Program-made: the position numbers and the translations under genes
The notes under the pieces: model-generated
Told to the model about the DNA's origin: nothing
Seen by the model: only the letters and a program-made list of their open reading frames with translations
Databases searched by the model: none
In this document: piece after piece, positions 1 through 16,674 of the stretch
Numbering within the stretch: position 1 is the first letter of the stretch
How the letters are laid out: each line of letters opens with the position of its first letter
DNA from: Patescibacteria group bacterium
GTDB taxonomy: Bacteria > Patescibacteriota > Patescibacteriia > Magasanikbacterales > GWA2-37-8
DNA length: 64,000 nt
Reading direction: 5' to 3'
NCBI GenBank assembly: GCA_004321885.1
Contig: SCQK01000014.1
Span: 1-64,000, forward strand

Positions 1-118
1 CGGCACTTGCGAACGGCTAAATCTTTAATTGTAAGGAGCGCCTGCTTAATTCGTATGCGTAAAACCATTGCCTGTAAACCAAAAGTTTTTCAACCGAATT
101 AATTTAATCATCCCTTAT

Positions 119-985
119 ATGGTACAAGCTTCAGATGTTGTTAAGCTCCGAGAACTTACGGGAGCAGGAATGATGGACTGCAAAAACGCGCTGGAAGAAA
201 CCGGCGGTGATATGGAAAAAGCCGCTGATTTATTGCGCAAAAAAGGCATTGTGAAAGCGGCTAAGCGGGCCGGCAAAGTGGCGGCCGAGGGACTGGTCCT
301 GGTGAAAACCGCCGGGAATTTCGGGGTCGTGATGGAACTGAATTGCGAGACTGATTTTGTGGCCAAAAACGACGGCTTCAAGCAAACCGCCGCAGAATTC
401 TTAGATTATCTTTTGGAAAAAAGGCCGGCTAATTTGGACCAGGCCCTGGGCCAGCCAATGGGTAGCGCCACTGTGCGCGAGAATCTGGAAAGCGCCACGG
501 CGAAAATCGGCGAGAAAATTTTCTTGCGCCGCTTCGCGGTATTGGAAAAAGGCGGCGGCGAGACTTTCGGTGAGTATATCCACATGGGCGGCAAAATCGC
601 AGTGTTGGTTTTGCTTTCCGGCGCCGATGCCGATTTGGCGCGCGAAATCGCCATGCAGGCGGCCGCGGCCAATCCGAGATATTTAGACAGAAGCGAAGTG
701 CCGGCCGCGGATTTGGAACGGGAAAAAGCCATCCACGCGGACCAGCTCAAAGCCCAGGGCAAACCCGAGAGCATGATAGAAAATATTTTGCGAGGCAAGC
801 TGGAAAAATTCTACGAGGAGAACTGCCTGATTGACCAAGTATATATAAAGGATGAAAGCAAAAAAGTGCGCGACCTGCTTGGTACGGCGACAATAAAAAA
901 ATTTATCCGTTTTGAACTGGGCGAGGGCATAGAAAAAGAACAGAAAAATTTTGCCGACGAAGTATCAGAACAGTTGGGCGGATAA
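119..985 (+). CDS. tsf: Translation elongation factor Ts
   Basis: Translation MVQASDVVKLRELTGAGMMDCKNALEETGGDMEKAADLLRKKG is the canonical EF-Ts N-terminal UBA-like region; the ORF track starts at 68 but the conserved N-terminus begins at the ATG at 119. Confidence 0.88.
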   Translation: MVQASDVVKLRELTGAGMMDCKNALEETGGDMEKAADLLRKKGIVKAAKRAGKVAAEGLVLVKTAGNFGVVMELNCETDFVAKNDGFKQTAAEFLDYLLEKRPANLDQALGQPMGSATVRENLESATAKIGEKIFLRRFAVLEKGGGETFGEYIHMGGKIAVLVLLSGADADLAREIAMQAAAANPRYLDRSEVPAADLEREKAIHADQLKAQGKPESMIENILRGKLEKFYEENCLIDQVYIKDESKKVRDLLGTATIKKFIRFELGEGIEKEQKNFADEVSEQLGG

Positions 986-1034
986 AAGTTATCCACAGGG
1001 TCATGCGATCCTGCGTGCCGGCCGCGAAAATTTG

Positions 1035-1178
1035 TGGTATAATAACATCAGCTTAATTCCACAACATTCAAGATGAGTGTGAAGCTTGTCTCACGCATCT
1101 ATAAATAGTTGGTTTGGAAATGCTTTTAGCGAAGCCAAAATTTTTTGTTAAAAATTTAATTTAAGGAGAAAAAAATAT
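1035..1178 (+). promoter_or_regulatory. Extended -10 promoter (TGgTATAAT at 1035..1043), ~130-nt leader and AAGGAG Shine-Dalgarno (1163..1168) for the giant surface-protein gene
   Basis: TGnTATAAT match; SD spaced 10 nt from the ATG at 1179. Confidence 0.5.
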
Positions 1179-4100
1179 ATGGCCAAGAAAATCGTGCGCC
1201 ATCTGGCGAGCAAAAAAAGAGCCTACCTGCTGTCGCTGGCGGCAGTGGTGTTGGGCATGGGTTTTTATTTAGCTTTTTTCTGGAGCAACGGGGCCAAGGC
1301 CCTCTCCGGCGTAACGCTTGCCGATACAGATACGAGTAGTTTTGGTTTGGATGGGCGCGACTTTACCGTAACCTGGGCCCCGGGCGCCACTCCGACGGCT
1401 TATATTTACACCCAGGTCTACATTGTTACCAGCACGGCTGTTCTTACCTCCAACACGCTTCAAACCGCCTGTAACGGCGTATGCCAGCCGGTTAGTTATT
1501 TTACCCAGTGGAGCATGAATACCGTCACCCTGCCGCAATACAGGAACACGGATAGCTCCAATGTGGCCTGGACAACCACCACCCAGTATGTGGCCTGGGT
1601 ATTTGCTTCCACCACTAACCCAGTCGATTCCCTAATGGTTTCTTCATCGCCGGTTTCCACCACTTATGACGTTGCCTCCGACGCCATGGCCCCGAACATA
1701 GATCACATGTCGGCGCACGCGGCCACGCAAAGCGCCAACGCCCTTCTTTATGCGTTTGCTTTTGACGAGCAGACCACGGCGTCCCAGTTCGCTTCCACCA
1801 CCGACGGCGGAGCTGAATTTTTTACCCTCTTTTACACGCCCACCAACACGGCCTGGGTCCCGGCCAATCAAGCGACCGCCACTTCGGTAGCCGGAGATTT
1901 ATTCTTGTTCACAGTGCCATCCGAGGCAGTGCCGGCGGCCGGGGGTTCGTTTAAGTATTATTTGTCGGCCAGAGACAGAGCCGGCAACACTAAATTTTTC
2001 TGCGCCAATCCCAGCGCCATATCCGCGGCTGATTGCCAATCCAATGCTTTTATTGTCAATACGGTAGCGGCTGGCTCGCGCCAGGTTTCCGGCAAGATTA
2101 CGTCCGGGGGCGCTAATTTGGCCGGCGCCACAGTGTTTGCCGGCGGTTATGCCAAGGCGGCTGTCGCATCCGACGCTAGCGGCGATTACACCATTACCGG
2201 TTTGCCTGATAATGATGGGTTTGATTTCACCGCGACCAAAGCCGGCTATTGCAAGAACATCCGTTTTGAAAATATCGGCGCTACCAATAAAACCGGCGTG
2301 GACATGTCGCTTAACTCCGGCACTTGCGGCGGATACTATGGCGGAGGCGGGAGCGGTGGCGGCACGCCCATGGTGGTGTTTTCGGGTCCGCCGGAAGGTA
2401 TGAATAACGTGTTTCTTGGTGAAACAATGCGCATGGGCGTAAATCAGCCCCTTGACCAGGCCACCATTAACAGCACAAATGTCTACCTCACGACCGATGA
2501 TGGCACGACTAAGATCCCCGGCAGTGTAACATTCTGTTCCAATAATGCTTCGCCCGGTTGTTCTTCTCTTTTCGCGATGGATAATAATGTCGTGTTGTTC
2601 GTGCCCACGTCGCCGCTATCTTCCAGCACCTTTTATACTTATGTCATCACCGAAGGCGTTAAAAGCGCGAGCGGCCAGTCTATTACCGGCAACCGCGCCG
2701 GCGGCGGCCACAAGGTCAGCTTTACCACCTCGGGCGGCAATTACAGCGGCGGCGGTTATACCATGGGCAGCAGCGGCCAGTTCATGCCCCCTTATGTGAA
2801 ATCAATGAGTCCGGCCGGCGGCATGAGCGTGGCCCCGAACGTTAAATTAATTCTGGAATTCAACAAGGCAATGAGCGCGAGTACGGTAAACACCTCCAAT
2901 GTTATTCTGTGGAACACGACTTTAAATTCGGCTGTTACTTTAAGCAGTGTTACCTTGGACAACGCGGAAAGCCGCTTTGCGGTTATCACGCCCAGCTCAA
3001 TGCCGGCCGGCAATGACTATGAACTGCGCGTCAAGGGCGGGGTGCAAGATGCGAGCGGCGTGGGCATGCGTTCGCCGGCCGAGGCCTCGCAAACAGCTTT
3101 CAGCTCGTTTTTTAGCGTGGCTGGTTCAAACGACAACACCGCGCCCACGACTTATCCAATGACTGCTTCTGGCACCACCGGCGTTGCCACCAATAATCTT
3201 TTTGAGTTTGGTTTTAATGAACGGCTGGATACCCAGACCGTCAATTCCACCAACATCACCATGAGCCGCGGGGGCACGTCAGTCAGCATTGACGCCAAAT
3301 ATGACGGCACCAAGAACAGTATTTTGATTGTTCCCAGCTCGGCCCTGGCGGCAAGCACGGTCTACACCATTACCTTATCCAGAATTAAGGATTTGGCCAA
3401 CAACCAAATTGCCACTTCCACCTATACCTATACTACCGGCGCGGCCGATATCGCGGCGCCGGCAGTACAGAATGTGAGATGCGATGATTATACCTGCCGC
3501 ATATCGTTCAGCGAGCCTATGAACCACGCGACCAAGGTTGATTCCACCTGGGCGAGCAGTACCTTGAATCATTTGAATTTGAGCCTGACCCAGGGTGGGG
3601 CCGACAAAATAGTCACCACCACGGCGCTATCCTACGATTCAGTGGCCAAAGAATTGGTTGCCGAGGGCGTGGCCCTTACTTTTGGCGGAGCCAACTTCGC
3701 ACTGACAATCACTGGTGTTACTGATATTACCGGCAACATTATGCCGGTCGTTGCTTGGACAGGAGCAGTGGAAGACAGTAGAAAGACGTTTGGTTTTGGT
3801 GAAATGGGCATGTTTGGCCCGCCCACTACTGATATGATGGGCGGCGGGTCCATTGGCGGCGGCGAGTTCAAGCCCATGGGCTTTGGCTCGTTTACAGCCG
3901 ACCAGTTTGCCATGGGTCAGGCTGATATGGCTTTCCCGTTCAACCCCACTGTCAGCCAGGACGTCAATGTCTTTCATGTGGAATTAAATCCCAACACGGC
4001 CCTGCAAAACAACGATCAGGTGGCATTAACATTCCCGGATGGAGTCAACATTACGAACGCCGCCATGGATACCCTGTCTCCGTTTTTCGCGGACATGAAC

Positions 4101-7100
4101 CAGTTTGGAGCCGGCACTGTGACAGCCACTATTGCCTCGGTGAATACCAGCACCAATAAGATTACTCTTAATTTAGGCATTGTCGGCGGGCCCACTGGTC
4201 CGGGCGATCGTTTGTTCATTGATTTGCGCAAAATAATCAATCAGTCAACCCCGAACAATCCGTCCATTGGCGGAAGCAAACTTAGTATTAGTATTCTAAG
4301 AAGCAACGCGGTTCTGGCCAGCAAGACCACCATGGAATATTATGTCATGGCCGGCGGCACCAATACCTTAAATGTGGCCGTCATTGCCGGCAGCGCCACT
4401 TCTTCGCCGCAAAGCGGAGCAAACGGAACAGTTTATTTGCACGGAGGCGGCCCGGGCGGTCCGATGGATAAAACCCTGGTGCTCTTGAATGGTTCAATTT
4501 CCACTGTTGACGGGACTTCGGCAAATTCAATTTCTTTCACCAGCTTAAATAACGGCTGTTATTTCGTTGGCACTGACCCGTTCGTTAGTTTGGGCGGGGC
4601 TGATTACTTTGGCCAGGGCATGCCCGAACCAGTCTGCTTGAATGGCAGTGCATCAAGTACCAAATATATCTTGCTCTCTCCGGCCGCTGGTTCGGGCTCG
4701 GTGACAACCACGGTTAAATTGGCTGGCATCGCGAACTTTGGCGGCGCTGACATAGACATCTTTGCCGGGGGTCCGGGCCGATTTGTGGTCAAGACACTCA
4801 CGGCTTTGGGTGCGCCCGATGCCAATGGCTATAATTTGCAACTGCCGGCCAATGGCAACTGGTTTATCGGCGTGGGTCCGGCCATGCCCAAGGGCAGTTC
4901 CATGACCATGCCAAAGACATTGCCGGGCGTGCCTCCGGCTCCGATTGATGTGGCTGTGAGCGGCGTTGGTTCTGGTTCCCCCTCTGTTACCCGCAACAGC
5001 TTCATGCCTCTGCCTTCCAGCGTCAGCTTCAATGATACCTCGGATACGATTACCTTTACCTTTGCCACGGCTGATAAAATGGTAACCGGCACAGTGAAAG
5101 ACGGCGCTGGAAACGGGTTGGCGAATATTCAGGTATTCTTGCACCAGCAGGGGTTTGGCGCGCCAACATTTGGGCAGACCAATGCCTCGGGCACGTTTAC
5201 ATTGTCTGTGTCGGATTATGGCAGTTATGAAATCGGCGCGTTTAGAGATGGCATGCCGCCGGTGTTCAAGAGCCTGGAGATTAGAACCGACGGCGACGAT
5301 GCCGACAGCTTGGCTGACATCTATTATCAGGGCAAGTTGATTACCCAGGCCAACCCGCTGGTGCTGACGATGAAAAAAGCGGCCTATACTATTTCCGGCA
5401 AGGTGCTTGACGCGAGCAACAACAGCATAGACGGGGCTCCGGTGTTCGCGGTGGACGAGAACGGCAATAGCGCCATGGGCATGACAGCCTCGGACGGCAG
5501 CGGCTATTCCATATTTGTGGACGCCGGCACCTGGACAGTGCGCGCTGAATTGCCTCCGGATAAATCTGACACCTGCGGGTCTTTCTCCAAGAGTGTCGTA
5601 GTCACCAACGCCAGCAAGTCATTGCAAAACATCAGCCCGTCCACAGCCACCTGTATCACGCTTAGCGGCACGGCCAGCGCCGGCGGCACGGCCATTGCCA
5701 ACGCCCCTTTGTTTATAGAGGAATGGGACAACACCAACAGCCGGCCGGTGCAGGGCGGGGTAAAACGCGGCACGGCTACGGACAGCAATGGCGCCTATTC
5801 GGTGAAATTGGCCGGCAATACCACTTATCGCGTAGGCACCTGGAATCCGACTTATGGCGAGCTTAGCGCGGTCAAGGCGGTGCTGGCAATAGATGCCACG
5901 CAAAATTTGACTCTTTCTTCAACCAGCACGGTTACATTCAATTTCACCGGCGGTACCGCCAACATGAAGGCTTTTGTTGAATTGAAGAATGCCACTGATA
6001 AAATGAAAAGAATCGGCAAACAGGTAGAGTCGCTGGCCAGCGCCGCCACTGTTTCTGTTGAAGGCGGAGCAACCTACAATTACTTCGTTGACGTGTTCGG
6101 ATTTGGCAAGTTCACGGGTTCAGTGGCCGCCGGCGCTTCAGCCACGGTAGACGTTTCCACGGTCGGCTTTATCACGGTTTCCGGCACCATATACAGCGGC
6201 GCCGGCACGACCACGCCTGTGTCCGGAGCCCTCGTCACCTTTACCAATACCAGCACCGGCATAGTGCAAAGCGCGTCCACTAATGCCAGCGGCACGTATA
6301 GCGTGAAAATTAAAGCCGGTGATTACGCGGTAAGCGCCGGTCTAAATGAATATCTGCCCGGGCAAACCGCCGCGGTAGTTTCTTTCGCTACCACCACTCT
6401 GAATTATGATTTCGGCGGCGCGGCTCCGGACCAGGTGGCCATGGTCAGAGCAAATCGCACTATTGAAGGATTTATTTCCACTTCGGCCAGCGCTTCCACT
6501 TCCCAGGGATACGTCTGGGCCACTAACGCGTCGGGCACTGTCATCAGTGCGCCTATCAACGCGAATGGCACGTATTCATTGTCTGTCAACGACGGGTCCT
6601 GGACCGTAAAAGCGACCGCGCCCAGGCACGCGGAAACCACCAAGAGCGCCGCCGTAACAGTCTCGGGAAGTAATTCCACGGGCAACAACTTTACCCTTAC
6701 CGCTGATGCCACGCGCGTGCCCACCTCAACCTCGGGCATTGTGGCGGCCAATAGCGGCGGCTCGGTAAACGACAGCAACAATACCGGCATAAAAGTAGTA
6801 GCCGGCCCGGGCGTGCTTGAAGCCGGTTCTACCAATAATGTTACGGTTAGTCTGGAAAAAACATACAGCGCCCCGGCTTCCAGCGAATTCAACGCCTTAG
6901 GCAACGCGACTTACAGCATCACGGCCAAGACCACTTCCCAGGTTAAAGATTTGGTAGGCAATGCCGATATTCAGCTTGATTACACCAGCATGGTCGCGCA
7001 ATTGCCCACCGGAGTGACGGAAGCAGACCTGAAACTGATGTACTTGTCTTCTGAAACCGGCAAATACGTGTCAGTGGAAGGCGGCTATACCATAGACGCG

Positions 7101-8309
7101 ACCAACAACACCATTACAGGCCAGGTTGACCACCTCACGGACTTTGTTATCGCTTACTCGCCTCCGGCCGCGGCGGCCGCGCCCGCCTCGCCGGCTGCCT
7201 CGCCGACCACTGGTAGCGCGCCTACCAGCGACACTACTCCGCCGACCAATACTTCGGTGGTGATAGCGGGCGGCGCCACTACCACGGCCAGCGCCTCGGT
7301 TACCCTTACCCTGGCCGCCACTGGCGCCAGCCACATGATGGTATCCAATGTCGCGGCCTTTACCGGAGCGGCTTGGGAAACTTATGCCACTTCCAAGTCT
7401 TGGACCCTGGCCTCCGGAGCCGGCGTGAAAACCGTGTACGCGCGGTTCAAGGATTCATCCGGCAACATTTCCACGGCCGTATCTGATACTATACAACTGA
7501 CCGGCACGCAGACTACCCCGACTACGGATATTGTTGTGCCGGGCGTGGAAAATCTGGTAACGGGCGCTCCGACGGCCCCGGTAGTGGCGGTAGCGTATCC
7601 GGATTCGCTGGTGGAAATCACAAATATCCTCAAGGGTTCGTTTCAGCCAAGTGAAACGCTCAAGTTCGCCTACAAGTTCACCAACGAAAGCGCCAAGACC
7701 TTGAAGATAAAAATAGTGCGCCAGCTCTTAAATAGCAAGGGCAAAGTGATAAGCACTGCTTCCACGGTAAAGACCATCAAGGCCGGGCAGGCCTTTAATG
7801 CCGGCGTGAAACAAGCGCTGAACAAGAAATGGCCGGCCGGAGTCTATACCATGCGCGTGCGCGTGTACAACGCGGCCACGAACAAACTGCTGGAGCAGAA
7901 TAGCTTCCAGATTACGATTGAAAAGCTGAAAAAGAAGGTGTTCAAGCTTGGCGCGGCTCTTAGCGCTGATTCGGATGTCCAGTTTGACCAGGCCAGTCTG
8001 GCCAAAGTCAAATCCGGCGGCGGTTTGCCGGTGATTATCAAGGCCAAATACAGCTACACCAATAATACGGGCGCAAAGCATGTGGTGAAAATGGTGCGCG
8101 AGTTGGTGAATGGCAGTGGCAAAGTAGTTTCCACTTCCAAGGGCAAATGGACAATGGCTGTGGATGAAAAGTCCAGTCAATCCTTTACCCAGCCCGTGGC
8201 CGCCAATCTGGCGGCGGGCTCGTACGCAATGCGCGTTAAGGCCTATGATTGGACCAGCAACGAATTGTTGGCGGAAAATAGCTTGGGATTTGAGGTGGCG
8301 CTAAAGTAA
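1179..8309 (+). CDS. Giant (2376 aa) secreted/cell-surface protein with N-terminal signal/TM anchor, many Thr/Ser/Gly-rich Ig-like and carboxypeptidase-regulatory-like beta-sandwich modules, and a conserved C-terminal module shared with the next gene
   Basis: Single uninterrupted ORF; hydrophobic N-terminus (LLSLAAVVLGMGFYLAFFW); recurring segments such as VSGKITSGGANLAGATVFAGGY...SGDYTITGLPDNDGFDF typical of CarboxypepD_reg-like domains; AAGGAG Shine-Dalgarno 10 nt upstream; all antisense ORFs inside are short. Confidence 0.85.
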   Translation: MAKKIVRHLASKKRAYLLSLAAVVLGMGFYLAFFWSNGAKALSGVTLADTDTSSFGLDGRDFTVTWAPGATPTAYIYTQVYIVTSTAVLTSNTLQTACNGVCQPVSYFTQWSMNTVTLPQYRNTDSSNVAWTTTTQYVAWVFASTTNPVDSLMVSSSPVSTTYDVASDAMAPNIDHMSAHAATQSANALLYAFAFDEQTTASQFASTTDGGAEFFTLFYTPTNTAWVPANQATATSVAGDLFLFTVPSEAVPAAGGSFKYYLSARDRAGNTKFFCANPSAISAADCQSNAFIVNTVAAGSRQVSGKITSGGANLAGATVFAGGYAKAAVASDASGDYTITGLPDNDGFDFTATKAGYCKNIRFENIGATNKTGVDMSLNSGTCGGYYGGGGSGGGTPMVVFSGPPEGMNNVFLGETMRMGVNQPLDQATINSTNVYLTTDDGTTKIPGSVTFCSNNASPGCSSLFAMDNNVVLFVPTSPLSSSTFYTYVITEGVKSASGQSITGNRAGGGHKVSFTTSGGNYSGGGYTMGSSGQFMPPYVKSMSPAGGMSVAPNVKLILEFNKAMSASTVNTSNVILWNTTLNSAVTLSSVTLDNAESRFAVITPSSMPAGNDYELRVKGGVQDASGVGMRSPAEASQTAFSSFFSVAGSNDNTAPTTYPMTASGTTGVATNNLFEFGFNERLDTQTVNSTNITMSRGGTSVSIDAKYDGTKNSILIVPSSALAASTVYTITLSRIKDLANNQIATSTYTYTTGAADIAAPAVQNVRCDDYTCRISFSEPMNHATKVDSTWASSTLNHLNLSLTQGGADKIVTTTALSYDSVAKELVAEGVALTFGGANFALTITGVTDITGNIMPVVAWTGAVEDSRKTFGFGEMGMFGPPTTDMMGGGSIGGGEFKPMGFGSFTADQFAMGQADMAFPFNPTVSQDVNVFHVELNPNTALQNNDQVALTFPDGVNITNAAMDTLSPFFADMNQFGAGTVTATIASVNTSTNKITLNLGIVGGPTGPGDRLFIDLRKIINQSTPNNPSIGGSKLSISILRSNAVLASKTTMEYYVMAGGTNTLNVAVIAGSATSSPQSGANGTVYLHGGGPGGPMDKTLVLLNGSISTVDGTSANSISFTSLNNGCYFVGTDPFVSLGGADYFGQGMPEPVCLNGSASSTKYILLSPAAGSGSVTTTVKLAGIANFGGADIDIFAGGPGRFVVKTLTALGAPDANGYNLQLPANGNWFIGVGPAMPKGSSMTMPKTLPGVPPAPIDVAVSGVGSGSPSVTRNSFMPLPSSVSFNDTSDTITFTFATADKMVTGTVKDGAGNGLANIQVFLHQQGFGAPTFGQTNASGTFTLSVSDYGSYEIGAFRDGMPPVFKSLEIRTDGDDADSLADIYYQGKLITQANPLVLTMKKAAYTISGKVLDASNNSIDGAPVFAVDENGNSAMGMTASDGSGYSIFVDAGTWTVRAELPPDKSDTCGSFSKSVVVTNASKSLQNISPSTATCITLSGTASAGGTAIANAPLFIEEWDNTNSRPVQGGVKRGTATDSNGAYSVKLAGNTTYRVGTWNPTYGELSAVKAVLAIDATQNLTLSSTSTVTFNFTGGTANMKAFVELKNATDKMKRIGKQVESLASAATVSVEGGATYNYFVDVFGFGKFTGSVAAGASATVDVSTVGFITVSGTIYSGAGTTTPVSGALVTFTNTSTGIVQSASTNASGTYSVKIKAGDYAVSAGLNEYLPGQTAAVVSFATTTLNYDFGGAAPDQVAMVRANRTIEGFISTSASASTSQGYVWATNASGTVISAPINANGTYSLSVNDGSWTVKATAPRHAETTKSAAVTVSGSNSTGNNFTLTADATRVPTSTSGIVAANSGGSVNDSNNTGIKVVAGPGVLEAGSTNNVTVSLEKTYSAPASSEFNALGNATYSITAKTTSQVKDLVGNADIQLDYTSMVAQLPTGVTEADLKLMYLSSETGKYVSVEGGYTIDATNNTITGQVDHLTDFVIAYSPPAAAAAPASPAASPTTGSAPTSDTTPPTNTSVVIAGGATTTASASVTLTLAATGASHMMVSNVAAFTGAAWETYATSKSWTLASGAGVKTVYARFKDSSGNISTAVSDTIQLTGTQTTPTTDIVVPGVENLVTGAPTAPVVAVAYPDSLVEITNILKGSFQPSETLKFAYKFTNESAKTLKIKIVRQLLNSKGKVISTASTVKTIKAGQAFNAGVKQALNKKWPAGVYTMRVRVYNAATNKLLEQNSFQITIEKLKKKVFKLGAALSADSDVQFDQASLAKVKSGGGLPVIIKAKYSYTNNTGAKHVVKMVRELVNGSGKVVSTSKGKWTMAVDEKSSQSFTQPVAANLAAGSYAMRVKAYDWTSNELLAENSLGFEVALK

Positions 8310-8321
8310 TAGATTATAGGG

Positions 8322-8348
8322 CCCCGTTTAGAGCATTCTCTAACGGGG
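8322..8348 (+). terminator. Terminator-like hairpin after the giant gene (CCCCGTTTAGAG-catt-CTCTAACGGGG)
   Basis: 11-bp stem with one bulge, 13 nt after the stop; a sequence-related copy follows the next gene. Confidence 0.5.
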
Positions 8349-8353
8349 CAGGA

Positions 8354-8384
8354 ATTTCCATCTAAATTTTTTTTGGATGGAAAT
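8354..8384. promoter_or_regulatory. Perfect 8-bp inverted repeat TTTCCATC-(T-rich 12 nt)-GATGGAAA between the two surface-protein genes
   Basis: Palindrome read directly from the sequence; ~30 nt upstream of the 8415 ATG. Confidence 0.35.
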
Positions 8385-8414
8385 TTTTGCGGAAATTTAT
8401 TTATTAAATATAGT

Positions 8415-10847
8415 ATGGCAAAAAATATCTTCAAGTTTACGCTGTTTGTCGCGTTAGCGGTCGTGGTTTTACTCATAAGCGCGCAAAACGCGAGCGCGGC
8501 AGTAAACGCGCCGACCACGCCCACTTCCACCAGCAACATAACAGCCTCATCTATTCGGTATAATTGGACCTGGGGCGGAGGCGAGGAAGACCGGTGGGTT
8601 TTAGAGCGCTCAACTAATGGTAGCGACTGGACATTTGTCGCCACCACCACAGCGACCACCACGGCAAATTATACCTACACTGGATTAGCGACCAATACCC
8701 TTTATTATTTCAGAGTAGGGGCCGCTACCTCCACTTCCGTTACGTCAACTTATGCCACCTCTTCGGCTGTTTATACAGCTGTCGAGCAGGTGTCGGCTCC
8801 GACAATAGGAACCGCCAATACTTCTTCCCTACCCATAACTATCAATATTGGAGGCAACCCGGCGGCCACCACCTATGCCCTATACAACACCACCACGGCC
8901 AATTACCTTAACTCGGCCGGAGCAGTCACCACCACCCCGGTCTGGCAAACTACTTCCACCTGGGGCGCCAGCTTCGCGGCCACTGGTTTGAGTTTGAACA
9001 CTCTTTATCAATTCGCGGTTATTTCACGAAACGGAGACAATACCGAGGCTGCCACTTCCACGGTCAGCACGGCTAAGTATACTTTGGCCAGCCAAGCCAG
9101 CACTCCCACTATTGGCACTCCCACTGTTTCCACTTTGCCCGTCACCATCAATATCAACTCCAATCCGGCGGCCACTACCTATGCCTTGTATAATTTTACG
9201 TCAGGTAATTATTTAGCTTCCAACGGTTCATCCACTACCACTCCTGTTTGGCAAACCACTTCCACCTGGGGAGCGGCCTTTGCCGCTACCGGCCTTTCGG
9301 TCAACAGCGCTTACCAGTTTAATGTCATTGCCAGAAACGGAGACAGCGTGGAGGCCGCCACTTCCACGACCAGCACGGCTAAATACACCTTAGCCAACGC
9401 CGCTTCCGCTCCTACTATTGGCACAGCCGCCACTTCCAGCTTGCCTATCACTATCAATATCAACTCCAACCCGGCGGCCACCACCTATGCCCTATACAAC
9501 ACCACCACGGCCAATTACCTTAACTCGGCCGGAGCAGCCACCACCACTCCGGTTTGGCAGACCACTTCCACCTGGGGCGCCAGCTTCGCGGCCACTGGTT
9601 TAAGTTTGAACACTCTTTATCAATTCGCGGTTATTTCACGAAACGGAGACAATACCGAGGCTGCCACTTCCACGGTCAGCACGGCCAAGTATACTTTGGC
9701 TACCGCGCCGACAATGGGAGAAACCACCAACGTTGGCTCTTCAAACGCGACAATGAATTGGACCGGCAATGGCACCCAGTATTACGCTGAAAATACCAAT
9801 AACGGGGCGAATTCCGGATGGATAAGCGGCGTATCCAGCGCTTTCACCGGCTTGTCTTGTAATGTATCGTATATCTTTCGCGTAAAATCAAGAAATGGCG
9901 ACTCTACCGAAACCGACTGGAGCGCTTCTACCACAGTGTCTCTTACCAATTGCGGGGGCAGTTCGCCCGGTGGCGGCAGTCCCAGCCCCACTGTTACAAC
10001 GCCGGTTACCACCGTGGTAACTTCCACTATAGTCGCGCCAATTACAACGCCCGCTCCGGTTTCAGCGCCGGTTACGGCAACCACGCCGGTTTCGTCGGTG
10101 ATAACACCTGTTGCCACCGTGTCGGAAACCGCGGTACAAAATCCAGACTCCCTGGTGGTGATAGAAAATATCGCGAAGGTTTCATTCCAGCCCGGCGAGC
10201 CGCTTAAATTTACGTATAATTTTACCAACGACAATGACGCGTCCCTCAAAATCAAGATTGTCCGTCAGCTCTTAAGCAGCAAAGGCAAGGTCCTAAAGTC
10301 GGCTTCAGCGTTCAGAGTCTTGAAGTCCGGACAGACGGCGGTTGTTAAAGTGAACGAAACCATAGCCAAAAAACAAAGCCCGGGCAACTACACGGTGAAA
10401 GTGGCTGTCTACAACAGCCAGACCAGCAAACTGATTGACAGCAACAGTTTTGGCATCACAGTGGAAAAACTCAAGAAAAAGTTTTTGGTTCTGGGTGAAA
10501 ACATCTCCAGCGAGTACGCGGCCATTAAATTTGATTTGTCCGGCGTGAAAATCAGCGCTGGTCTGCCGGCAATGATAAAGGGAAAATACAACTACACCAA
10601 TCAGAGCGCGGACAGTCAGGCGATTAGAATGGTCAGAGAGTTGCAGGGTCCGGATGGCAAGGTTATCGCGAAAAAAATCGGCAAATGGACAATGACCGCG
10701 GGCGAGAGCTATTGGCAGGGCTTTACCCAGGCGGTGGGCGGCAATTTGGCCGCCGGTCCATATCTGATTTCCGTGAAAGCGTATGATTACGCCACGGGCG
10801 ACCTGTTGGAACAGAACAGTTTCGGCTTCAACGTGGTATTGAAATAG
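8415..10847 (+). CDS. Cell-surface protein with signal peptide, five fibronectin-type-III-like domains (three near-identical) and the same C-terminal module as the giant protein
   Basis: Signal peptide MAKNIFKFTLFVALAVVVLLISAQNASA; the W..Y..Y.FRV Fn3 pattern repeats every ~101 aa; C-terminal ~235 aa align with the C-terminus of the 1179..8309 product. The ATG at 8415 is preferred over the track start 8373. Confidence 0.8.
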   Translation: MAKNIFKFTLFVALAVVVLLISAQNASAAVNAPTTPTSTSNITASSIRYNWTWGGGEEDRWVLERSTNGSDWTFVATTTATTTANYTYTGLATNTLYYFRVGAATSTSVTSTYATSSAVYTAVEQVSAPTIGTANTSSLPITINIGGNPAATTYALYNTTTANYLNSAGAVTTTPVWQTTSTWGASFAATGLSLNTLYQFAVISRNGDNTEAATSTVSTAKYTLASQASTPTIGTPTVSTLPVTININSNPAATTYALYNFTSGNYLASNGSSTTTPVWQTTSTWGAAFAATGLSVNSAYQFNVIARNGDSVEAATSTTSTAKYTLANAASAPTIGTAATSSLPITININSNPAATTYALYNTTTANYLNSAGAATTTPVWQTTSTWGASFAATGLSLNTLYQFAVISRNGDNTEAATSTVSTAKYTLATAPTMGETTNVGSSNATMNWTGNGTQYYAENTNNGANSGWISGVSSAFTGLSCNVSYIFRVKSRNGDSTETDWSASTTVSLTNCGGSSPGGGSPSPTVTTPVTTVVTSTIVAPITTPAPVSAPVTATTPVSSVITPVATVSETAVQNPDSLVVIENIAKVSFQPGEPLKFTYNFTNDNDASLKIKIVRQLLSSKGKVLKSASAFRVLKSGQTAVVKVNETIAKKQSPGNYTVKVAVYNSQTSKLIDSNSFGITVEKLKKKFLVLGENISSEYAAIKFDLSGVKISAGLPAMIKGKYNYTNQSADSQAIRMVRELQGPDGKVIAKKIGKWTMTAGESYWQGFTQAVGGNLAAGPYLISVKAYDYATGDLLEQNSFGFNVVLK
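8793..9707 (+). repeat. Three tandem ~303-bp coding repeats (Fn3-like units); units 1 and 3 are nearly identical at nucleotide level
   Basis: Compare 8860..9090 with 9470..9700: only a few substitutions over ~230 nt. Confidence 0.85.
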
Positions 10848-10871
10848 GATAGGCCGTCAACGTTGAACTTG

Positions 10872-10908
10872 CCCCGTTAGAGAGCTTCTCTAACTGGGCT
10901 TGTTTTTT
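10872..10908 (+). terminator. Rho-independent terminator (CCCCGTTAGAGA-gctt-CTCTAACTGGG followed by TTGTTTTTT)
   Basis: Stem-loop plus U-tract; the stem sequence is homologous to the hairpin at 8322..8348. Confidence 0.65.
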
Positions 10909-10987
10909 GCCGGAAATTTGGGTATAATTTTAATACGCAAGCAATTTAACTTCCTAATTCGCTATTCTTAATTCTTTATTCTCGTAT

Positions 10988-11983
10988 ATGAACATCGCAA
11001 TCAACGGTTTTGGCCGCATTGGGCGGCAGGCGTTTAAGGTGGCTGTAACAAAGAAAAACATAAAGGTGGTCGCGCTCAATGATTTAACCGACACCAAGAC
11101 CATGGCGCATTTGTTAAAATACGACACGTCTTACGGCTCGTTTGATTTGCCCCTTTCCTTTGATGAGAAAAATTTAATCGTGAAAGGCAAAAAGATTCCG
11201 GTGCTGGCGGAAAAAGACCCGAGCAAACTGCCCTGGGGTGAAATGAAAGTGGCCGTGGTTTTGGAGTGCACGGGCCGGTTTACCAAAAAAGAAGACGCGG
11301 CTTTGCATTTGCAAGCGGGCGCGAAAAAAGTGATTATTTCGGCGCCGGCCAAGGGCGGCGGAGTGCCGACTTATGTGCGCGGGGTAAATTGCGGCCAGGT
11401 GGGCAAAGAGAAAGAAGCGATTATCAACAACGCCTCATGCACCACCAATTGCATCGCGCCGGTGATGGCGGTGCTGGATGAAAAGTTCGGCATAGAAAAG
11501 GCGTTTATGAGCACGGCGCACGGCTACACGGCCGACCAGAATCTGCAAGACGGCCCGCACAAGGATTTGCGCCGGGCGCGCGCGGCCGCCTGCAACATCA
11601 TTCCTACTACCACGGGCGCGGCCAAGGCCGTGGGCGAGGTGATTCCCAAATTAAAGGGTATTTTTGACGGGGTGGCTTTCCGGGTGCCGGTGCCGACTGT
11701 TTCTTTGTCCGATATTACCGCTGTCTTGAAAAAGAACGCGACTAAAGAAGAGGTGAATAAAGCGATTTTGGCGGCCGCGGGTACTTCGCGCTTCAAGGGT
11801 ATTTTGGCCGCCACCAGCGAGCCGCTGGTGTCTGCGGATTTTATCGGCAACACGCATTCCTCGTTTGTGGATTTGAGCTTGACCAGCGTGGTGGGAGGGA
11901 ATATGGTGAAAGTGGTGGCTTGGTACGACAATGAAGTTGGCTACGCCAATCGCCTGGTGGAACTGGCCGAGTTATTCGCGTAA
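10988..11983 (+). CDS. gap: Glyceraldehyde-3-phosphate dehydrogenase
   Basis: NGFGRIGR N-terminal NAD-binding motif and the active-site ASCTTNCIAPV. Confidence 0.9.
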   Translation: MNIAINGFGRIGRQAFKVAVTKKNIKVVALNDLTDTKTMAHLLKYDTSYGSFDLPLSFDEKNLIVKGKKIPVLAEKDPSKLPWGEMKVAVVLECTGRFTKKEDAALHLQAGAKKVIISAPAKGGGVPTYVRGVNCGQVGKEKEAIINNASCTTNCIAPVMAVLDEKFGIEKAFMSTAHGYTADQNLQDGPHKDLRRARAAACNIIPTTTGAAKAVGEVIPKLKGIFDGVAFRVPVPTVSLSDITAVLKKNATKEEVNKAILAAAGTSRFKGILAATSEPLVSADFIGNTHSSFVDLSLTSVVGGNMVKVVAWYDNEVGYANRLVELAELFA

Positions 11984-11987
11984 AATT

Positions 11988-12021
11988 TCTCTCCCCCTTT
12001 TTAAGGAGGAGACGAAGAGGG
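11988..12021. repeat. C-run/G-run palindromic intergenic element (family A), copy after gap
   Basis: TCTCTCCCCC-tttttaa-GGAGGAGACGAAGAGGG; the G arm provides AGGAGG before the next ATG. Confidence 0.45.
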
Positions 12022-12027
12022 TAAACA

Positions 12028-12618
12028 ATGCTTATGCTAAAAATTAAGAATGATGAACTGATAAAAGAATTAGTCGGTTCCGAGGCGGAATTTCCCAAAT
12101 ACGCTACCCAACTGATCAATCTTGCCAATCAAAACGCCCAGGGTACGAGACCAAAAGTTGTTGGTCAATTGTCCGAGTTGATTAATGAGTGCCCTAAGAA
12201 GACGTATGAGGGTTGGCGCGACTGGTACCTCGCCAAACATCCGGACGCGATCAAAAATGCCGTGGTAAAGATAAATCAGATGATGGAGAATTTTAAGTTG
12301 GCCATCAAATCCATCAATAAAAAAATGATTGAAAAATGGGTTAGGGATTTAGTACTGGAAAAAACTTATGTGGGGTTGAGATTCCAGGAAGCCATATTAA
12401 AAAAAGTGGCGCAAATCAAAAAAATAAGCTATCAATTATCAACCGCCCAAGAAGAATCCTGCGGGATAGACGGATATGTCGGCGGTGAAGCCGTCTCTGT
12501 TAAGCCTATGTCGTACAAGACAAAGGCCGCTTTGGGAGAAACATTAGGAGGAAAAATAATTTTTTACGAAAAGAAAAAAGACGGCTTAAACATAGACGCG
12601 GATTTGATATTAAAATAA
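12028..12618 (+). CDS. Candidate type II restriction endonuclease, partner of the adjacent methyltransferase
   Basis: 196-aa ORF ending 4 nt before the MTase start and co-oriented with it; no recognisable housekeeping domain. Assignment is by operon context only. Confidence 0.4.
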   Translation: MLMLKIKNDELIKELVGSEAEFPKYATQLINLANQNAQGTRPKVVGQLSELINECPKKTYEGWRDWYLAKHPDAIKNAVVKINQMMENFKLAIKSINKKMIEKWVRDLVLEKTYVGLRFQEAILKKVAQIKKISYQLSTAQEESCGIDGYVGGEAVSVKPMSYKTKAALGETLGGKIIFYEKKKDGLNIDADLILK

Positions 12619-12622
12619 TAAC

Positions 12623-13576
12623 ATGGGCACGAATCATAGAATAATTATTGGCGATTCGCGGCAGATGTCGGAGCTTAGCGACAAATCTGTCCATCTTATT
12701 ATAACCTCACCGCCTTATTGGCAGATAAAGGATTATGGCAGTGCCGATCAGATAGGTTTTAACGATACCTACGAGGAATACATAAAAAATTTGAATCAGG
12801 TGTGGTCCGAATGCGCGCGCGTTTTGCATGATGGTTGCCGCATGGTGATAAATATCGGCGATCAATTTGCCAGGGCCGTTACATACGGGAGGTATAAAGT
12901 GATACCCATTCGCGAAGAGATAATCAAATTTTGCGAATCAATCGGCTTTGATTATATGGGCGCGATTATTTGGCAGAAAGTGACGACGATGCACACTACC
13001 GGCGGCGCCTCAATTATGGGTTCTTTTCCGTACCCGAGGAACGGCATGATAGCGATAGATTATGAGTTCATATTGCTTTTCAAAAAGCTGGGCAAGGCGC
13101 CCAATAATGTGACTGCGGATATAAAAAAGAAATCAGAGATGACGAAAGAAGAATGGAGAGAATACTTTACCGGACATTGGAATTTTGTTGGCGAGAAGCA
13201 AAACGGCGGGCATATCGCGATGTTTCCCGAAGAGCTACCCAAGCGCATTATAAAAATGTTTAGTTTTTTTGGGGAAACGGTGCTTGATCCGTTTTTGGGC
13301 AGTGGCACGACAACAAAGACAGCCCGGGAGTTAGGCCGCAATTCTGTTGGGTACGAAATCAATAATGATTTTTTGTCGGTTATTAAGGAAAAAGTCGGCA
13401 TTAATAAAATGTCGCTCTTCAATCGCGATACGAAGTATGACGTCGTAAATCAGCAGAAAAATTACGGGCTGAAACAAAAAGGTATTGAAAAAAAAGATTC
13501 CATAATTAAAAATAGAGTTAACGATCCGAATTTTTGGAAATTATTAAAAGAGAAAAGATGCAAGGTCGTCACTTAA
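12623..13576 (+). CDS. DNA methyltransferase, beta-class amino-MTase (N4-cytosine or N6-adenine; SPPY catalytic motif)
   Basis: Motif IV LIITSPPYW near the N-terminus and motif I FLGSGTT near the C-terminus (circular permutation typical of the N6_N4_Mtase family). Confidence 0.85.
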   Translation: MGTNHRIIIGDSRQMSELSDKSVHLIITSPPYWQIKDYGSADQIGFNDTYEEYIKNLNQVWSECARVLHDGCRMVINIGDQFARAVTYGRYKVIPIREEIIKFCESIGFDYMGAIIWQKVTTMHTTGGASIMGSFPYPRNGMIAIDYEFILLFKKLGKAPNNVTADIKKKSEMTKEEWREYFTGHWNFVGEKQNGGHIAMFPEELPKRIIKMFSFFGETVLDPFLGSGTTTKTARELGRNSVGYEINNDFLSVIKEKVGINKMSLFNRDTKYDVVNQQKNYGLKQKGIEKKDSIIKNRVNDPNFWKLLKEKRCKVVT

Positions 13577-14807: not shown

Positions 14808-14826
14808 ATTGCGGCTTAAAAGCAGT

Positions 14827-16674
14827 ATGACAGAAGGAACAACTCTCAACCGCGCTATCAAAAATCAAGAAATTTGGAAGTTTAATGTTGAAAAAGATGG
14901 TCTCTATTTGATTACAATTAACGCGCGATGCAAAAATTGGCTTCAGAGTTTTCGGCGTCTATTCAACGACGATGATTTGGCGGTTCAAATTGATGATCAT
15001 TTGCTTGCTGAATTGGCGGGGAAAAAACGTGAATTCAATCAGCCGGGCGCTTGGAATGGGAACGACTTGAAAAACAATTTCAAAACCGTTCTGATGTTGC
15101 TCCCCTTAAAATCCGGCACCCACGAAATCAAATTTTGGACAGACGGGGCGCCATACGTGGAAACGCCGAAGATAAAAGAAATCAAATTAACGCGAGAAAT
15201 ATTGATTGACGCGCCGGATGCTAAAGCAGCGGACTTAATCATTAAAAATATTTTAGCGGAAAATGTAGAAGTTATCGGCAAGGGAGCGACAAAAAAGATT
15301 GAAGTGGTCTACGCGCAAGATAAAATTTTCGCCTCTCCCTTAAAGAGAATAAAAGATCAACCGATTTCTTCCGTTAAAATCCGGCTCAAAAAAGAGGAAT
15401 TAAAATACAAAGTCGGAAAAATCAAATTATACAAAGATTTAGTTCTGTCAGATGAGGTAAATTTACGCGCAAGGCCCAATGATGGTTCAGAAATAATCGC
15501 GCGCATTCCTGATGGGGAAGAAGTAAATATTATTAATGAACGGGCGATGGAAGACGACCGTCAAAAATCCTATATAGCTTCATATTCTTATATTTGGCAT
15601 GAAGTTCTTTGGCAAGACAAATTCGGACAAGAGAAGAGCGGGTATGTGCTTTCTTCTTTTGTGGAAATACAGGGACAAGAGAGACAGACGATAATAAATC
15701 TCATAACAACCAAAAGTCGCGAACAAGGCGTGGACCCAAATATAATGTTGGCGATCGCTGGGCAAGAGTCGCGCTTCAAGCCATTTGCTGTGCCATCGAC
15801 GGGGCCGAAGGGCGTTTTTCAACTATCAGGCGATACAGCCGAGCGGGTGGGTGTGAAAGATCAATTTAATTTTTTTCAAAACGTGGAAGGTGGCGTAAAA
15901 TATTACAAAATAATTGAAAATCAATTCGCTGGTCGCGGGAATGTTTTGGAAAGAAGATTGTTGGCTTGGCATGACGGGCCAAGCAAGATACCCGAAAGAG
16001 GAAAGGTTGATCTAAGTAAGTTCTCTGCCGAGTCGCAAAAATTTGTGAAAAATGTTTTGCAAAACATTAAACGGAAGGACTGGTTCCATCTCTCTTCTTC
16101 CGTTATAGCGATTTTATTCGCTATCGCCGGTTCTTTTGTGGGTTATTTACAACACGATATATCAAAATTTGAGGAAAGCGCGGCTATATCTGTCGCCCAG
16201 GCGGCCGAAAGCGACAATTTTAGAAAATTTATTTTTCACGATGAAGCCGTGCCTTTGATTGTCGTCAAAAGCATCGGTACATTTCGTCCATTTCCGAATT
16301 TTCGCGCTGATTTTTATTATAGAAATAGCTGGGGCATGTCGTTTCATGAAACTTTAGACGGCTATTTAGACGATGCCGGATGGACATATTTGGGAAGACA
16401 AAAACTAATTTTTTGGGTGAGGCGCGAAGAGGGTCATTATCTGCCTACTTCATTTTTTATGTTTGATAATAGCACGGAAACTTTTAAAATGATAAAGTTT
16501 ATCGATCGTGATGGTAGAATTTACAATGATGTCAGCGCGCCTTATGATATTTCAACAGAAGGCGACGAGAGCTTTCTGAGCAAAGAAATTCGGCAAACTT
16601 GGGGTGACGTAGGCAAACCCGAAGTGAAGGAGTATAAGTATGATTGGGAGAAGAATGTGTTTAATGAGATATAG
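14827..16674 (+). CDS. Membrane-anchored lytic transglycosylase (SLT domain) with an unrecognised N-terminal domain, an SH3b-like segment and a C-terminal domain beyond one TM helix
   Basis: SLT catalytic region AIAGQESRFKPFAVPSTGPKGVFQLS; TM segment WFHLSSSVIAILFAIAGSFVGYL; N-terminal ~130 aa are shared with the 44340..46337 paralog. The track start 14809 is TTG; the first ATG is 14827. Confidence 0.7.
   Translation: MTEGTTLNRAIKNQEIWKFNVEKDGLYLITINARCKNWLQSFRRLFNDDDLAVQIDDHLLAELAGKKREFNQPGAWNGNDLKNNFKTVLMLLPLKSGTHEIKFWTDGAPYVETPKIKEIKLTREILIDAPDAKAADLIIKNILAENVEVIGKGATKKIEVVYAQDKIFASPLKRIKDQPISSVKIRLKKEELKYKVGKIKLYKDLVLSDEVNLRARPNDGSEIIARIPDGEEVNIINERAMEDDRQKSYIASYSYIWHEVLWQDKFGQEKSGYVLSSFVEIQGQERQTIINLITTKSREQGVDPNIMLAIAGQESRFKPFAVPSTGPKGVFQLSGDTAERVGVKDQFNFFQNVEGGVKYYKIIENQFAGRGNVLERRLLAWHDGPSKIPERGKVDLSKFSAESQKFVKNVLQNIKRKDWFHLSSSVIAILFAIAGSFVGYLQHDISKFEESAAISVAQAAESDNFRKFIFHDEAVPLIVVKSIGTFRPFPNFRADFYYRNSWGMSFHETLDGYLDDAGWTYLGRQKLIFWVRREEGHYLPTSFFMFDNSTETFKMIKFIDRDGRIYNDVSAPYDISTEGDESFLSKEIRQTWGDVGKPEVKEYKYDWEKNVFNEI

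Follow-up and report, generated by a model that had tools for sequence, protein, structure and literature searches.

A C-terminal tandem immunoglobulin-like module shared by giant surface proteins of Patescibacteria as a candidate cell-envelope anchor, and a dispersed family of small hairpins found at the same locus

The stretch analysed here, referred to as the window, comprises the first 64,000 nucleotides of contig SCQK01000014.1 from a member of the Patescibacteria (GenBank assembly GCA_004321885.1, Magasanikbacterales, GWA2-37-8), and it contains two adjacent, co-directional genes, designated gene 1 and gene 2, whose large secreted products end in the same two-unit C-terminal module and which are each followed by a similar DNA hairpin (Table 1). 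The pair is bordered by tsf upstream and gap downstream. Gene 1 has a ribosome-binding site (AAGGAGA) upstream of its ATG, and its product starts with a hydrophobic signal or anchor of about 21 residues, followed by an acidic body in which Big_5 and CarboxypepD_reg repeats are recognized by Pfam. Of the two candidate starts of gene 2, the ATG is more likely than the TTG, and the product carries a cleavable-looking signal peptide (...SAQNASA/AV, the slash marking the predicted cleavage) and a fibronectin type III (Fn3)-like body containing three tandem 306-nt (102-aa) repeats (window 8793-9700). Repeats 1 and 3 share 90% DNA identity, compared with 66% for the middle copy, which suggests recent repeat exchange within this body.

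Table 1. Features of the two-gene locus, with positions given in the window.
Feature	Position	Strand	Description	Basis
Gene 1	1179..8309	+	Secreted giant surface protein, 2376 aa	Open reading frame and translation
Gene 1 module, unit A	7599..7937	+	aa 2141-2253, from PDSLV to the EKLKKK linker; isoelectric point (pI) 10.3	AlphaFold2 (AF2) beta-sandwich
Gene 1 module, unit B	7938..8306	+	aa 2254-2376, ending ...NSLGFEVALK at the stop codon	AF2 beta-sandwich
Hairpin 1	8322..8348	+	CCCCGTTTAGAGCATTCTCTAACGGGG = CCCCGTTTAGAG-CATT-CTCTAACGGGG, with a bulged T; 13 nt 3' of the gene 1 stop codon	
Gene 2	8415 (ATG)..10847	+	Secreted Fn3-repeat protein, 810 aa (824 aa if TTG 8373 is the start)	
Gene 2 linker	9933..10142	+	Pro/Thr/Val-rich, low complexity, between Fn3 body and module	
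Gene 2 module, unit A	10143..10481	+	aa 577-689 (counted from ATG 8415); pI 10.0	Sequence alignment
Gene 2 module, unit B	10482..10844	+	aa 690-810, ending ...NSFGFNVVLK at the stop codon	Sequence alignment
Hairpin 2 with flanking repeat	10868..10902 (stem-loop 10872-10898)	+	CTTG-CCCCGTTAGAGAGCTTCTCTAACTGGG-CTTG, then TTTTTT; 24 nt 3' of the gene 2 stop codon	

The C-terminal 255 aa of the two products align end to end without large gaps, at 50% identity and E 3e-82, which agrees with the observation in a first-pass annotation of this DNA that their last ~235 residues correspond. The module itself spans ~236 aa and is a tandem of two ~115-aa units, A and B, which within one module share 30-32% identity (32% over 87 aa); since this similarity reaches E 7e-16, the internal duplication noted in the same annotation is real. 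The EKLKKK strand joining the two units is invariant in the closest relatives. At the DNA level, the module-coding regions of genes 1 and 2 are 60% identical, and 40% identical at third codon positions, and only these two copies were found by tblastn in the window. Outside the module, the bodies of the two proteins (2136 and 570 residues) show no similarity (best E 1.1), and the module can therefore be regarded, as had been proposed, as a tag common to otherwise unrelated proteins.

An exhaustive HMMER search of 1.84 billion representative proteins recovered a family of 209 clusters at E ≤ 1e-3, of which 148 remained at E ≤ 1e-10, and six relatives were returned by a word-indexed search, each of them carrying the module C-terminally. 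Positions and architectures were determined by re-scoring 151 returned proteins with a hidden Markov model of the module only. Among the 149 that scored, the last module match ended no more than 5 residues from the C-terminus in 106 proteins and no more than 20 residues from it in 133. The AB tandem was present in 58 proteins, unit A alone in 59, and an A+A arrangement in 18. Members are ~200 to 2900 aa long. By similarity, their bodies can be sorted into at least 13 groups with no links between them, in which Pfam recognizes Fn3 domains, CarboxypepD_reg domains or none. The profile search thus bears out the expectation that other proteins, including many from related genomes, end in this module. 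Nor does it correspond to a well-described domain occurring at arbitrary positions, as no curated family matched it convincingly above threshold. As far as sampled, the module is an uncurated domain family confined to Patescibacteria (Magasanikbacteria-like).

Structure prediction, which had been suggested for a single unit, was run on the module and gave AF2 models with predicted local distance difference test scores of 90.2 and 92.4, consisting of two immunoglobulin (Ig)-like beta-sandwiches. The tandem Ig/fibronectin type III (FnIII)-like arrangement is thus confidently predicted, but the fold is not exotic, the nearest solved structure being RbmA of Vibrio cholerae. The top eight Foldseek matches were all RbmA (E 2e-11 to 1e-9), with both domains aligned, and a profile search gave an RbmA match at E 0.007, likewise spanning both domains. 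RbmA (PDB 4kkp, 4be5; PF22021) resembles the module in its size of ~230 aa, its two tandem FnIII-like sandwiches and its secretion; however, it is a free-standing matrix protein of a diderm bacterium, whereas the module is a C-terminal tag on giant proteins.

Pfam was searched at E ≤ 1 with both whole proteins, both modules and 25 further modules of the family. The RbmA-like FnIII family (PF22021) matched the window modules with 18.5-22.2 bits, short of its gathering score of 27, and 14 of the 25 further modules below threshold (best E 5.4e-5). Big_13 (PF19077) matched the gene 1 module with 27.1-27.3 bits, at its cutoff of 27, as well as 5 of the 25 further modules, and gave no match to the gene 2 module. 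The weak Pfam matches belonged to Ig/E-set families, most of them carbohydrate-associated Ig domains (such as Wzt_C, Mannosidase_ig and NPCBM_assoc), and a direct PDB sequence search with one module returned no match.

The resemblance to RbmA raises the question of whether the module might act as a scaffold, binding a secreted polysaccharide or self-associating, so as to build a coat like an S-layer or a matrix between cells. In its favour, the best structural and profile matches are RbmA and cover both domains, the window contains polysaccharide-synthesis genes, and RbmA is reported to be a tandem-FnIII protein binding Vibrio exopolysaccharide directly (PMC5605196). However, sequence identity between the module and RbmA amounts to 15-16%, and the inter-domain orientation differs (template modelling score 0.37-0.40); furthermore, RbmA consists of its two domains without serving as a C-terminal tag, and the replacements of unit B described below, by PG_binding_1 or by poly-lysine tails, indicate a wall or a polyanion rather than a specific exopolysaccharide. 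We consider a scaffold function improbable.

The first-pass annotation had also stated that the module does not match known anchoring or sorting signals such as SLH, sortase or PEP-CTERM motifs, and profile and motif searches found none of them. In the Pfam searches, SLH, CWB1, CWB2, LysM, SH3b-GW, WxL and SPOR gave no match, and PG_binding_1 (PF01471) was not found in either window protein; WxLIP_HBD, a partner domain of the WxL system, matched 2 of the 25 further modules at 3e-4, below threshold. No NCBIfam model scored above threshold, and none of its sorting domains, TIGR04183 included, was matched. An LPxT[GAS] motif in the last 60 aa and a C-terminal hydrophobic 18-mer indicative of a membrane helix were each found in 0 of 151 family proteins. 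PEP-CTERM signals are likewise excluded for the window proteins, both of which end in ...V(A/V)LK, by the lack of a C-terminal hydrophobic segment and of an NCBIfam sorting match.

Anchoring, sorting and secretion had all been suggested as roles for the module, and its nature as a dedicated C-terminal element is upheld by the position counts. If it were a sorting or secretion signal, the C-terminal beta-sandwich would be recognized, and possibly removed, by dedicated export or attachment machinery, as in the type IX secretion system (T9SS) of Bacteroidota. The C-terminal sorting domain of that system is also an Ig-like beta-sandwich confined to the C-termini of diverse large secreted proteins, and one of the 25 further modules matched Por_Secre_tail in Pfam, at E 5e-4 and below threshold. 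In contrast to the 236-aa tandem module, however, the T9SS domain is a single unit of ~80-100 aa, it is removed by a dedicated sortase-like system, and it occurs in diderms; no significant match to it and no associated machinery were seen for the module. A processing or anchoring gene co-occurring with the module was looked for, as had been recommended, and no conserved neighbour was seen in nine module-gene contexts, which are flanked by housekeeping genes only (among them tsf, gap, nusA, yidC, rpsP and trmD). In addition, no NCBIfam sorting domain is matched, the members already carry Sec signals, and the tandem is far larger than known sorting tags. A sorting or secretion role therefore appears very unlikely to us, and anchoring is the better supported of the roles that had been suggested.

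The charge of the module sets it apart from the rest of the protein. In the window, the modules have pI values of 10.0 (gene 1) and 9.7 (gene 2) and net charges of +20 and +13, and the pI values of their bodies are 4.85 and 5.03, respectively; across the family the median pI is 9.97 for the module (above 8.5 in 99%) and 4.65 for the body. An N-terminal hydrophobic signal is present in 64 of 85 full-length members, many of them with AxA-type cleavage sites. Immediately upstream of the module, in a stretch of 60 aa, the proline fraction is 0.083 compared with 0.036 in the rest of the body (family-wide). Such a Pro/Thr-rich linker is like the wall-spanning regions of Gram-positive surface proteins. 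In four members (P0069, P0088, P0094, P0100), PG_binding_1 (E 1e-14 to 2e-16) takes the place of unit B behind unit A, and one of these, P0088, is encoded at a locus orthologous to that of AB-type giant genes, upstream of the matching RlmI-like methyltransferase. About 25 further members with unit A only end in Pro/Val/Lys-rich tails, for example PAPVVKKPVVK...KKK. From these replacements it follows that unit B, PG_binding_1 and a polycationic tail share one position.

Non-covalent wall-binding modules are well described in monoderms, including SLAP, the basic region at the C-terminus of S-layer proteins in Lactobacillus (PMC5817068). Like SLH, CWB2, LysM, GW/SH3b, WxL, PG_binding_1 and Lactobacillus SLAP, which are modular and often repeated terminal domains on unrelated Sec-secreted surface proteins, the module described here is strongly basic on an acidic body, and it exchanges with PG_binding_1 in orthologous proteins. 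It differs from these families in showing no sequence match to them and in its tandem Ig/FnIII-like sandwich, which is not among their folds. Taking the basic charge, the replacement of unit B by PG_binding_1 or lysine-rich tails and the lack of a conserved processing gene together, we favour anchoring over sorting or secretion, and we lean, on balance, towards the module being a non-covalent cell-envelope anchor of Patescibacteria (Magasanikbacteria-like). In such a model, the protein would be exported via Sec and its signal peptide cleaved, the cationic module (net +13 to +20) would bind an anionic component of the wall, be it peptidoglycan, some attached glycopolymer or the membrane's outer face, the Pro/Thr-rich linker would cross the wall, and the variable, acidic, repeat-rich body would project outward.

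Several points weigh against an anchoring function. The module matches no known wall-binding family in Pfam or NCBIfam, and a host surface, DNA or a matrix polysaccharide would be equally conceivable ligands of a basic Ig-like tandem. In addition, at one syntenic locus (L007) the orthologous giant gene contains an in-frame TAA (6463-6465) exactly at the module start (...VVVMA*PNSKVGISS..., the asterisk marking the stop), and the module is therefore called there as a separate gene of 226 aa (P0001). This stop may be a sequencing error, mark a pseudogene or represent a variant freeing the body from its anchor; unless it is an error, it may show that the body works without the module. Finally, the ~21-residue hydrophobic segment of gene 1 might remain as a membrane anchor, making the C-terminus distal. 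The last point leads to an arrangement in which the N-terminal segment holds the protein and the cationic C-terminal module forms the tip that binds the host envelope of an episymbiont. The hydrophobic stretch of gene 1 could indeed be an uncleaved signal anchor, PG_binding_1 occurs in place of unit B in some members, and a part in host attachment has been proposed for patescibacterial proteins that are extracellular and contain peptidoglycan-binding domains (PMC10936435). However, many members, including gene 2, have cleavable-looking AxA signals, so that cleavage would leave them without a link to the producing cell, and a conserved module combined with variable bodies is the usual pattern of an anchor with exposed domains. 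We therefore regard a host-binding tip as unlikely, although less so than a scaffold or a sorting signal.

Both module genes are followed by a hairpin, and the first-pass annotation described these as matching terminators belonging with the module. The similarity is clear, with 26 of 30 positions (87%) identical and a local alignment score of 36 compared with 15.8 +/- 2.3 for shuffled sequences, and both fold more stably than expected (folding z -3.6 for hairpin 1 and -3.8 for hairpin 2). Hairpin 2 is directly followed by the U-run CTTGTTTTTTG, as is typical of Rho-independent terminators, and, judging from its canonical form, it can act as an intrinsic terminator; hairpin 1 has no adjacent U-run, the nearest one starting ~19 nt downstream. 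The part of the claim that stands is therefore the similar stem-loop behind both genes, and the form of a terminator is seen at least in hairpin 2. The flanking 4-mers also differ, being a direct repeat (CTTG/CTTG) for hairpin 2 and imperfect (AGGG/CAGG) for hairpin 1. A perfect-stem scan of the window gave no further hairpin copies, and a simple terminator scanner listed neither hairpin 1 nor hairpin 2 because their stems are imperfect. Rfam gave no family match in the window. Beside these features, an inverted repeat, GGAATTTCCATC...GATGGAAATT(T), with a T-run in its loop, lies at 8351-8387 between hairpin 1 and the start of gene 2, and GGAAATTT is also found 3' of hairpin 2, at 10908-10915.

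The two stop codons are followed, at distances of 13 and 24 nt, by near-identical hairpins. This could reflect co-inheritance of module and hairpin, a segmental duplication having copied the 3' end of a gene together with its terminator, and the hairpin would then have a role related to the module. However, the module-coding sequences are saturated at synonymous sites, as seen from their third-position identity, whereas the hairpins have remained 87% identical. Moreover, the module genes of four related loci (L001, L002, L003, L007) are each followed by a stable hairpin whose sequence is unrelated to those of the window, and the window motif is absent from all ten related loci (L001-L010). It occurs instead at 120 or more metagenome loci, none of which, among those listed, contains the module. 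The claim that the hairpin belongs with the module is accordingly not upheld, and co-inheritance, which is largely refuted, seems to us highly improbable.

In locus L001, a different 30-nt perfect palindrome, GTAGAGACG(G/A)GGCATGCC(C/T)CGTCTCTAC, is found at 2168-2208 and 10487-10527, once 3' of the module gene and once, 8.3 kb away, 3' of an unrelated gene near a reverse transcriptase of a diversity-generating retroelement. As this palindrome follows two unrelated genes, lineage-specific recurring hairpins seem to be common in these genomes.

The metagenome scan was made with the motif CCCCGTT(N)AGAG..CTCTAACNGGG, which was found at at least 120 loci (L011-L130), with 122 distinct sites among the matches listed. 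The dominant sequence, CCCCGTTTAGAGATAAATCTCTAACGGGG, accounts for 37 copies, with 11 more in which the loop is inverted (among the matches listed), and it has the arms and the bulged T of window hairpin 1, whose arms are identical to it. Identical 4-nt flanks on both sides (TTTA, TTCG, TTCA and others) were present at 70 of the 122 sites listed, compared with 0 in shifted controls, and these 70 sites represent 62 distinct flank contexts. Filled and empty sites could be paired, as for TTTA[element]TTTA in L124 and TTTA in L062, or for L038:4805 (filled) and L038:8042 (empty), and one copy is nested in a related hairpin (L025). Among the bulged-type copies listed, 20 of 68 lie in-frame inside long open reading frames, adding TPFRDKSLTG or NPVRDKSLNG; the element itself measures ~27-29 nt, and 33 nt with its 4-nt duplication, which corresponds to 11 codons. 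Judged by the motifs flanking the insert, the hosts include housekeeping proteins (AspRS-, ThrRS-, Ddl- and MurB-like) as well as type IV pilins; two pilins or more (L050, L107) have the insert at the G/FT cleavage motif. Comparison of the window proteins with the hairpin-bearing metagenome loci gave 45-55% identity.

Window hairpin 2, with its CTTG repeat, carries the same mark as the duplicated metagenome sites and looks like an inserted element. Since the metagenome copies show duplications, empty sites, nesting and in-frame insertion, the window hairpins are most readily interpreted as two copies, landed or retained in 3' untranslated regions, of a dispersed micro-palindrome that is apparently mobile. 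Bacterial small mobile palindromes have been described, among them Rickettsia palindromic elements and SPRITE (PMC10969869). The present family is similar to mobile palindromes of the MITE (miniature inverted-repeat transposable element) and REP (repetitive extragenic palindrome) types, being multi-copy in unrelated contexts, bordered by short direct repeats that look like target-site duplications, present at filled and empty sites, terminator-like, and located between and inside genes. It is similar to the Rickettsia elements in being inserted in-frame inside genes, although these are ~150 bp long, and to the pneumococcal SPRITE as a small, terminator-like element. A literature search with the hairpin sequence returned only unrelated primers and no description of the element, and the hairpin was not found in viral contigs. 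A few candidates with separated arms flanked by a duplication were obtained, of which one (L012) was examined and proved to consist of two copies of a 246-nt multi-hairpin block; no transposase or autonomous partner with the same termini was identified. That this family is an ultra-small palindrome both truly mobile and undescribed is a possibility that we raise tentatively. It is in any case an unexpected finding separate from the module.

In L012, the 246-nt block, comprising several CCCCG...CGGGG hairpins, occurs at 2759-3004 and 4009-4254, 1250 nt apart, and its two copies flank a HigB/HigA-like toxin-antitoxin pair. Because a PEP-CTERM protein is encoded on the same contig, the host of at least this hairpin-bearing locus looks non-patescibacterial. 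Clustered composite repeats are thus another setting of related hairpins, probably outside Patescibacteria.

Downstream of gap, the window contains pgk, eno and aminoacyl-tRNA synthetase genes, and the GAPDH it encodes shares 80% identity with the one from a Candidatus Magasanikiibacteriota metagenome-assembled genome (L003), in which a module-ended giant gene is likewise followed by gap; L001 and L007 are also syntenic with the window. Because the window encodes a penicillin-binding protein, a Mur ligase, FtsW, an O-antigen-ligase-like protein and sugar-nucleotide enzymes, the host genome is that of a cell-wall maker among Magasanikbacteria-like Patescibacteria. Directly after gap, a stretch at 12028-13576 with a GC content of 0.40, compared with 0.51-0.56 in the preceding 12 kb, encodes a restriction endonuclease of the MjaI type together with an N4/N6 DNA methylase; given the low GC content and the absence of this pair from the matching position in L003 and L007, it is probably an inserted restriction-modification island. 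Farther downstream, two adjoining full-length genes for cofactor-independent phosphoglycerate mutase (iPGM_N and Metalloenzyme domains; 26787-28331 and 28388-29965) form a tandem duplication, which is unusual for a reduced genome. Large paralogous proteins with SH3_3 and SLT lytic transglycosylase domains are encoded at 14809-16674 and 44340-46337, the latter with an additional FG-GAP-like repeat, and both are candidate enzymes attacking either the cell's own wall or that of a host.

L001 carries a diversity-generating retroelement at a distance of a few kb on the upstream side of its syntenic surface-protein locus, with repeats at 436-494 and 922-980, bAvd at 1014-1406 and a reverse transcriptase at 1759-2277; its template and variable repeats differ at adenine positions, and the variable repeat is located in a separate small gene and not in the module gene. 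The module was considered as a variable region of such an element and rejected, as the divergence between the two window modules is ordinary, the window gave no tblastx match to the L001 reverse transcriptase, and its positions 1-12000 contain no repeat resembling a template and variable pair. The idea that the hairpin is the downstream cruciform of a diversity-generating retroelement was rejected along with it, the L001 variable repeat lying in another gene.

Almost nothing is known of how surface proteins are attached in bacteria of the candidate phyla radiation, although their lifestyle depends on contact with a host surface. The domain family that the module represents is new and uncurated, its functional kind being a known one, and the module may be a lineage-specific anchoring domain that marks displayed surface proteins, with an Ig/FnIII tandem outside the known wall-binding folds; in that case, the few wall-binding modules on record would be joined by an Ig-like tandem. 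A recognizable C-terminal tag would make the displayed surface proteins of the lineage predictable from sequence, and it would offer a handle for wall-ligand pull-downs and for fluorescent labelling of uncultured cells. The hairpin family, if mobile, would be among the smallest transposable-element-like sequences known and a source of ready-made terminators, and it would show that as little as ~29 nt of sequence can spread and that essential proteins can accommodate it.

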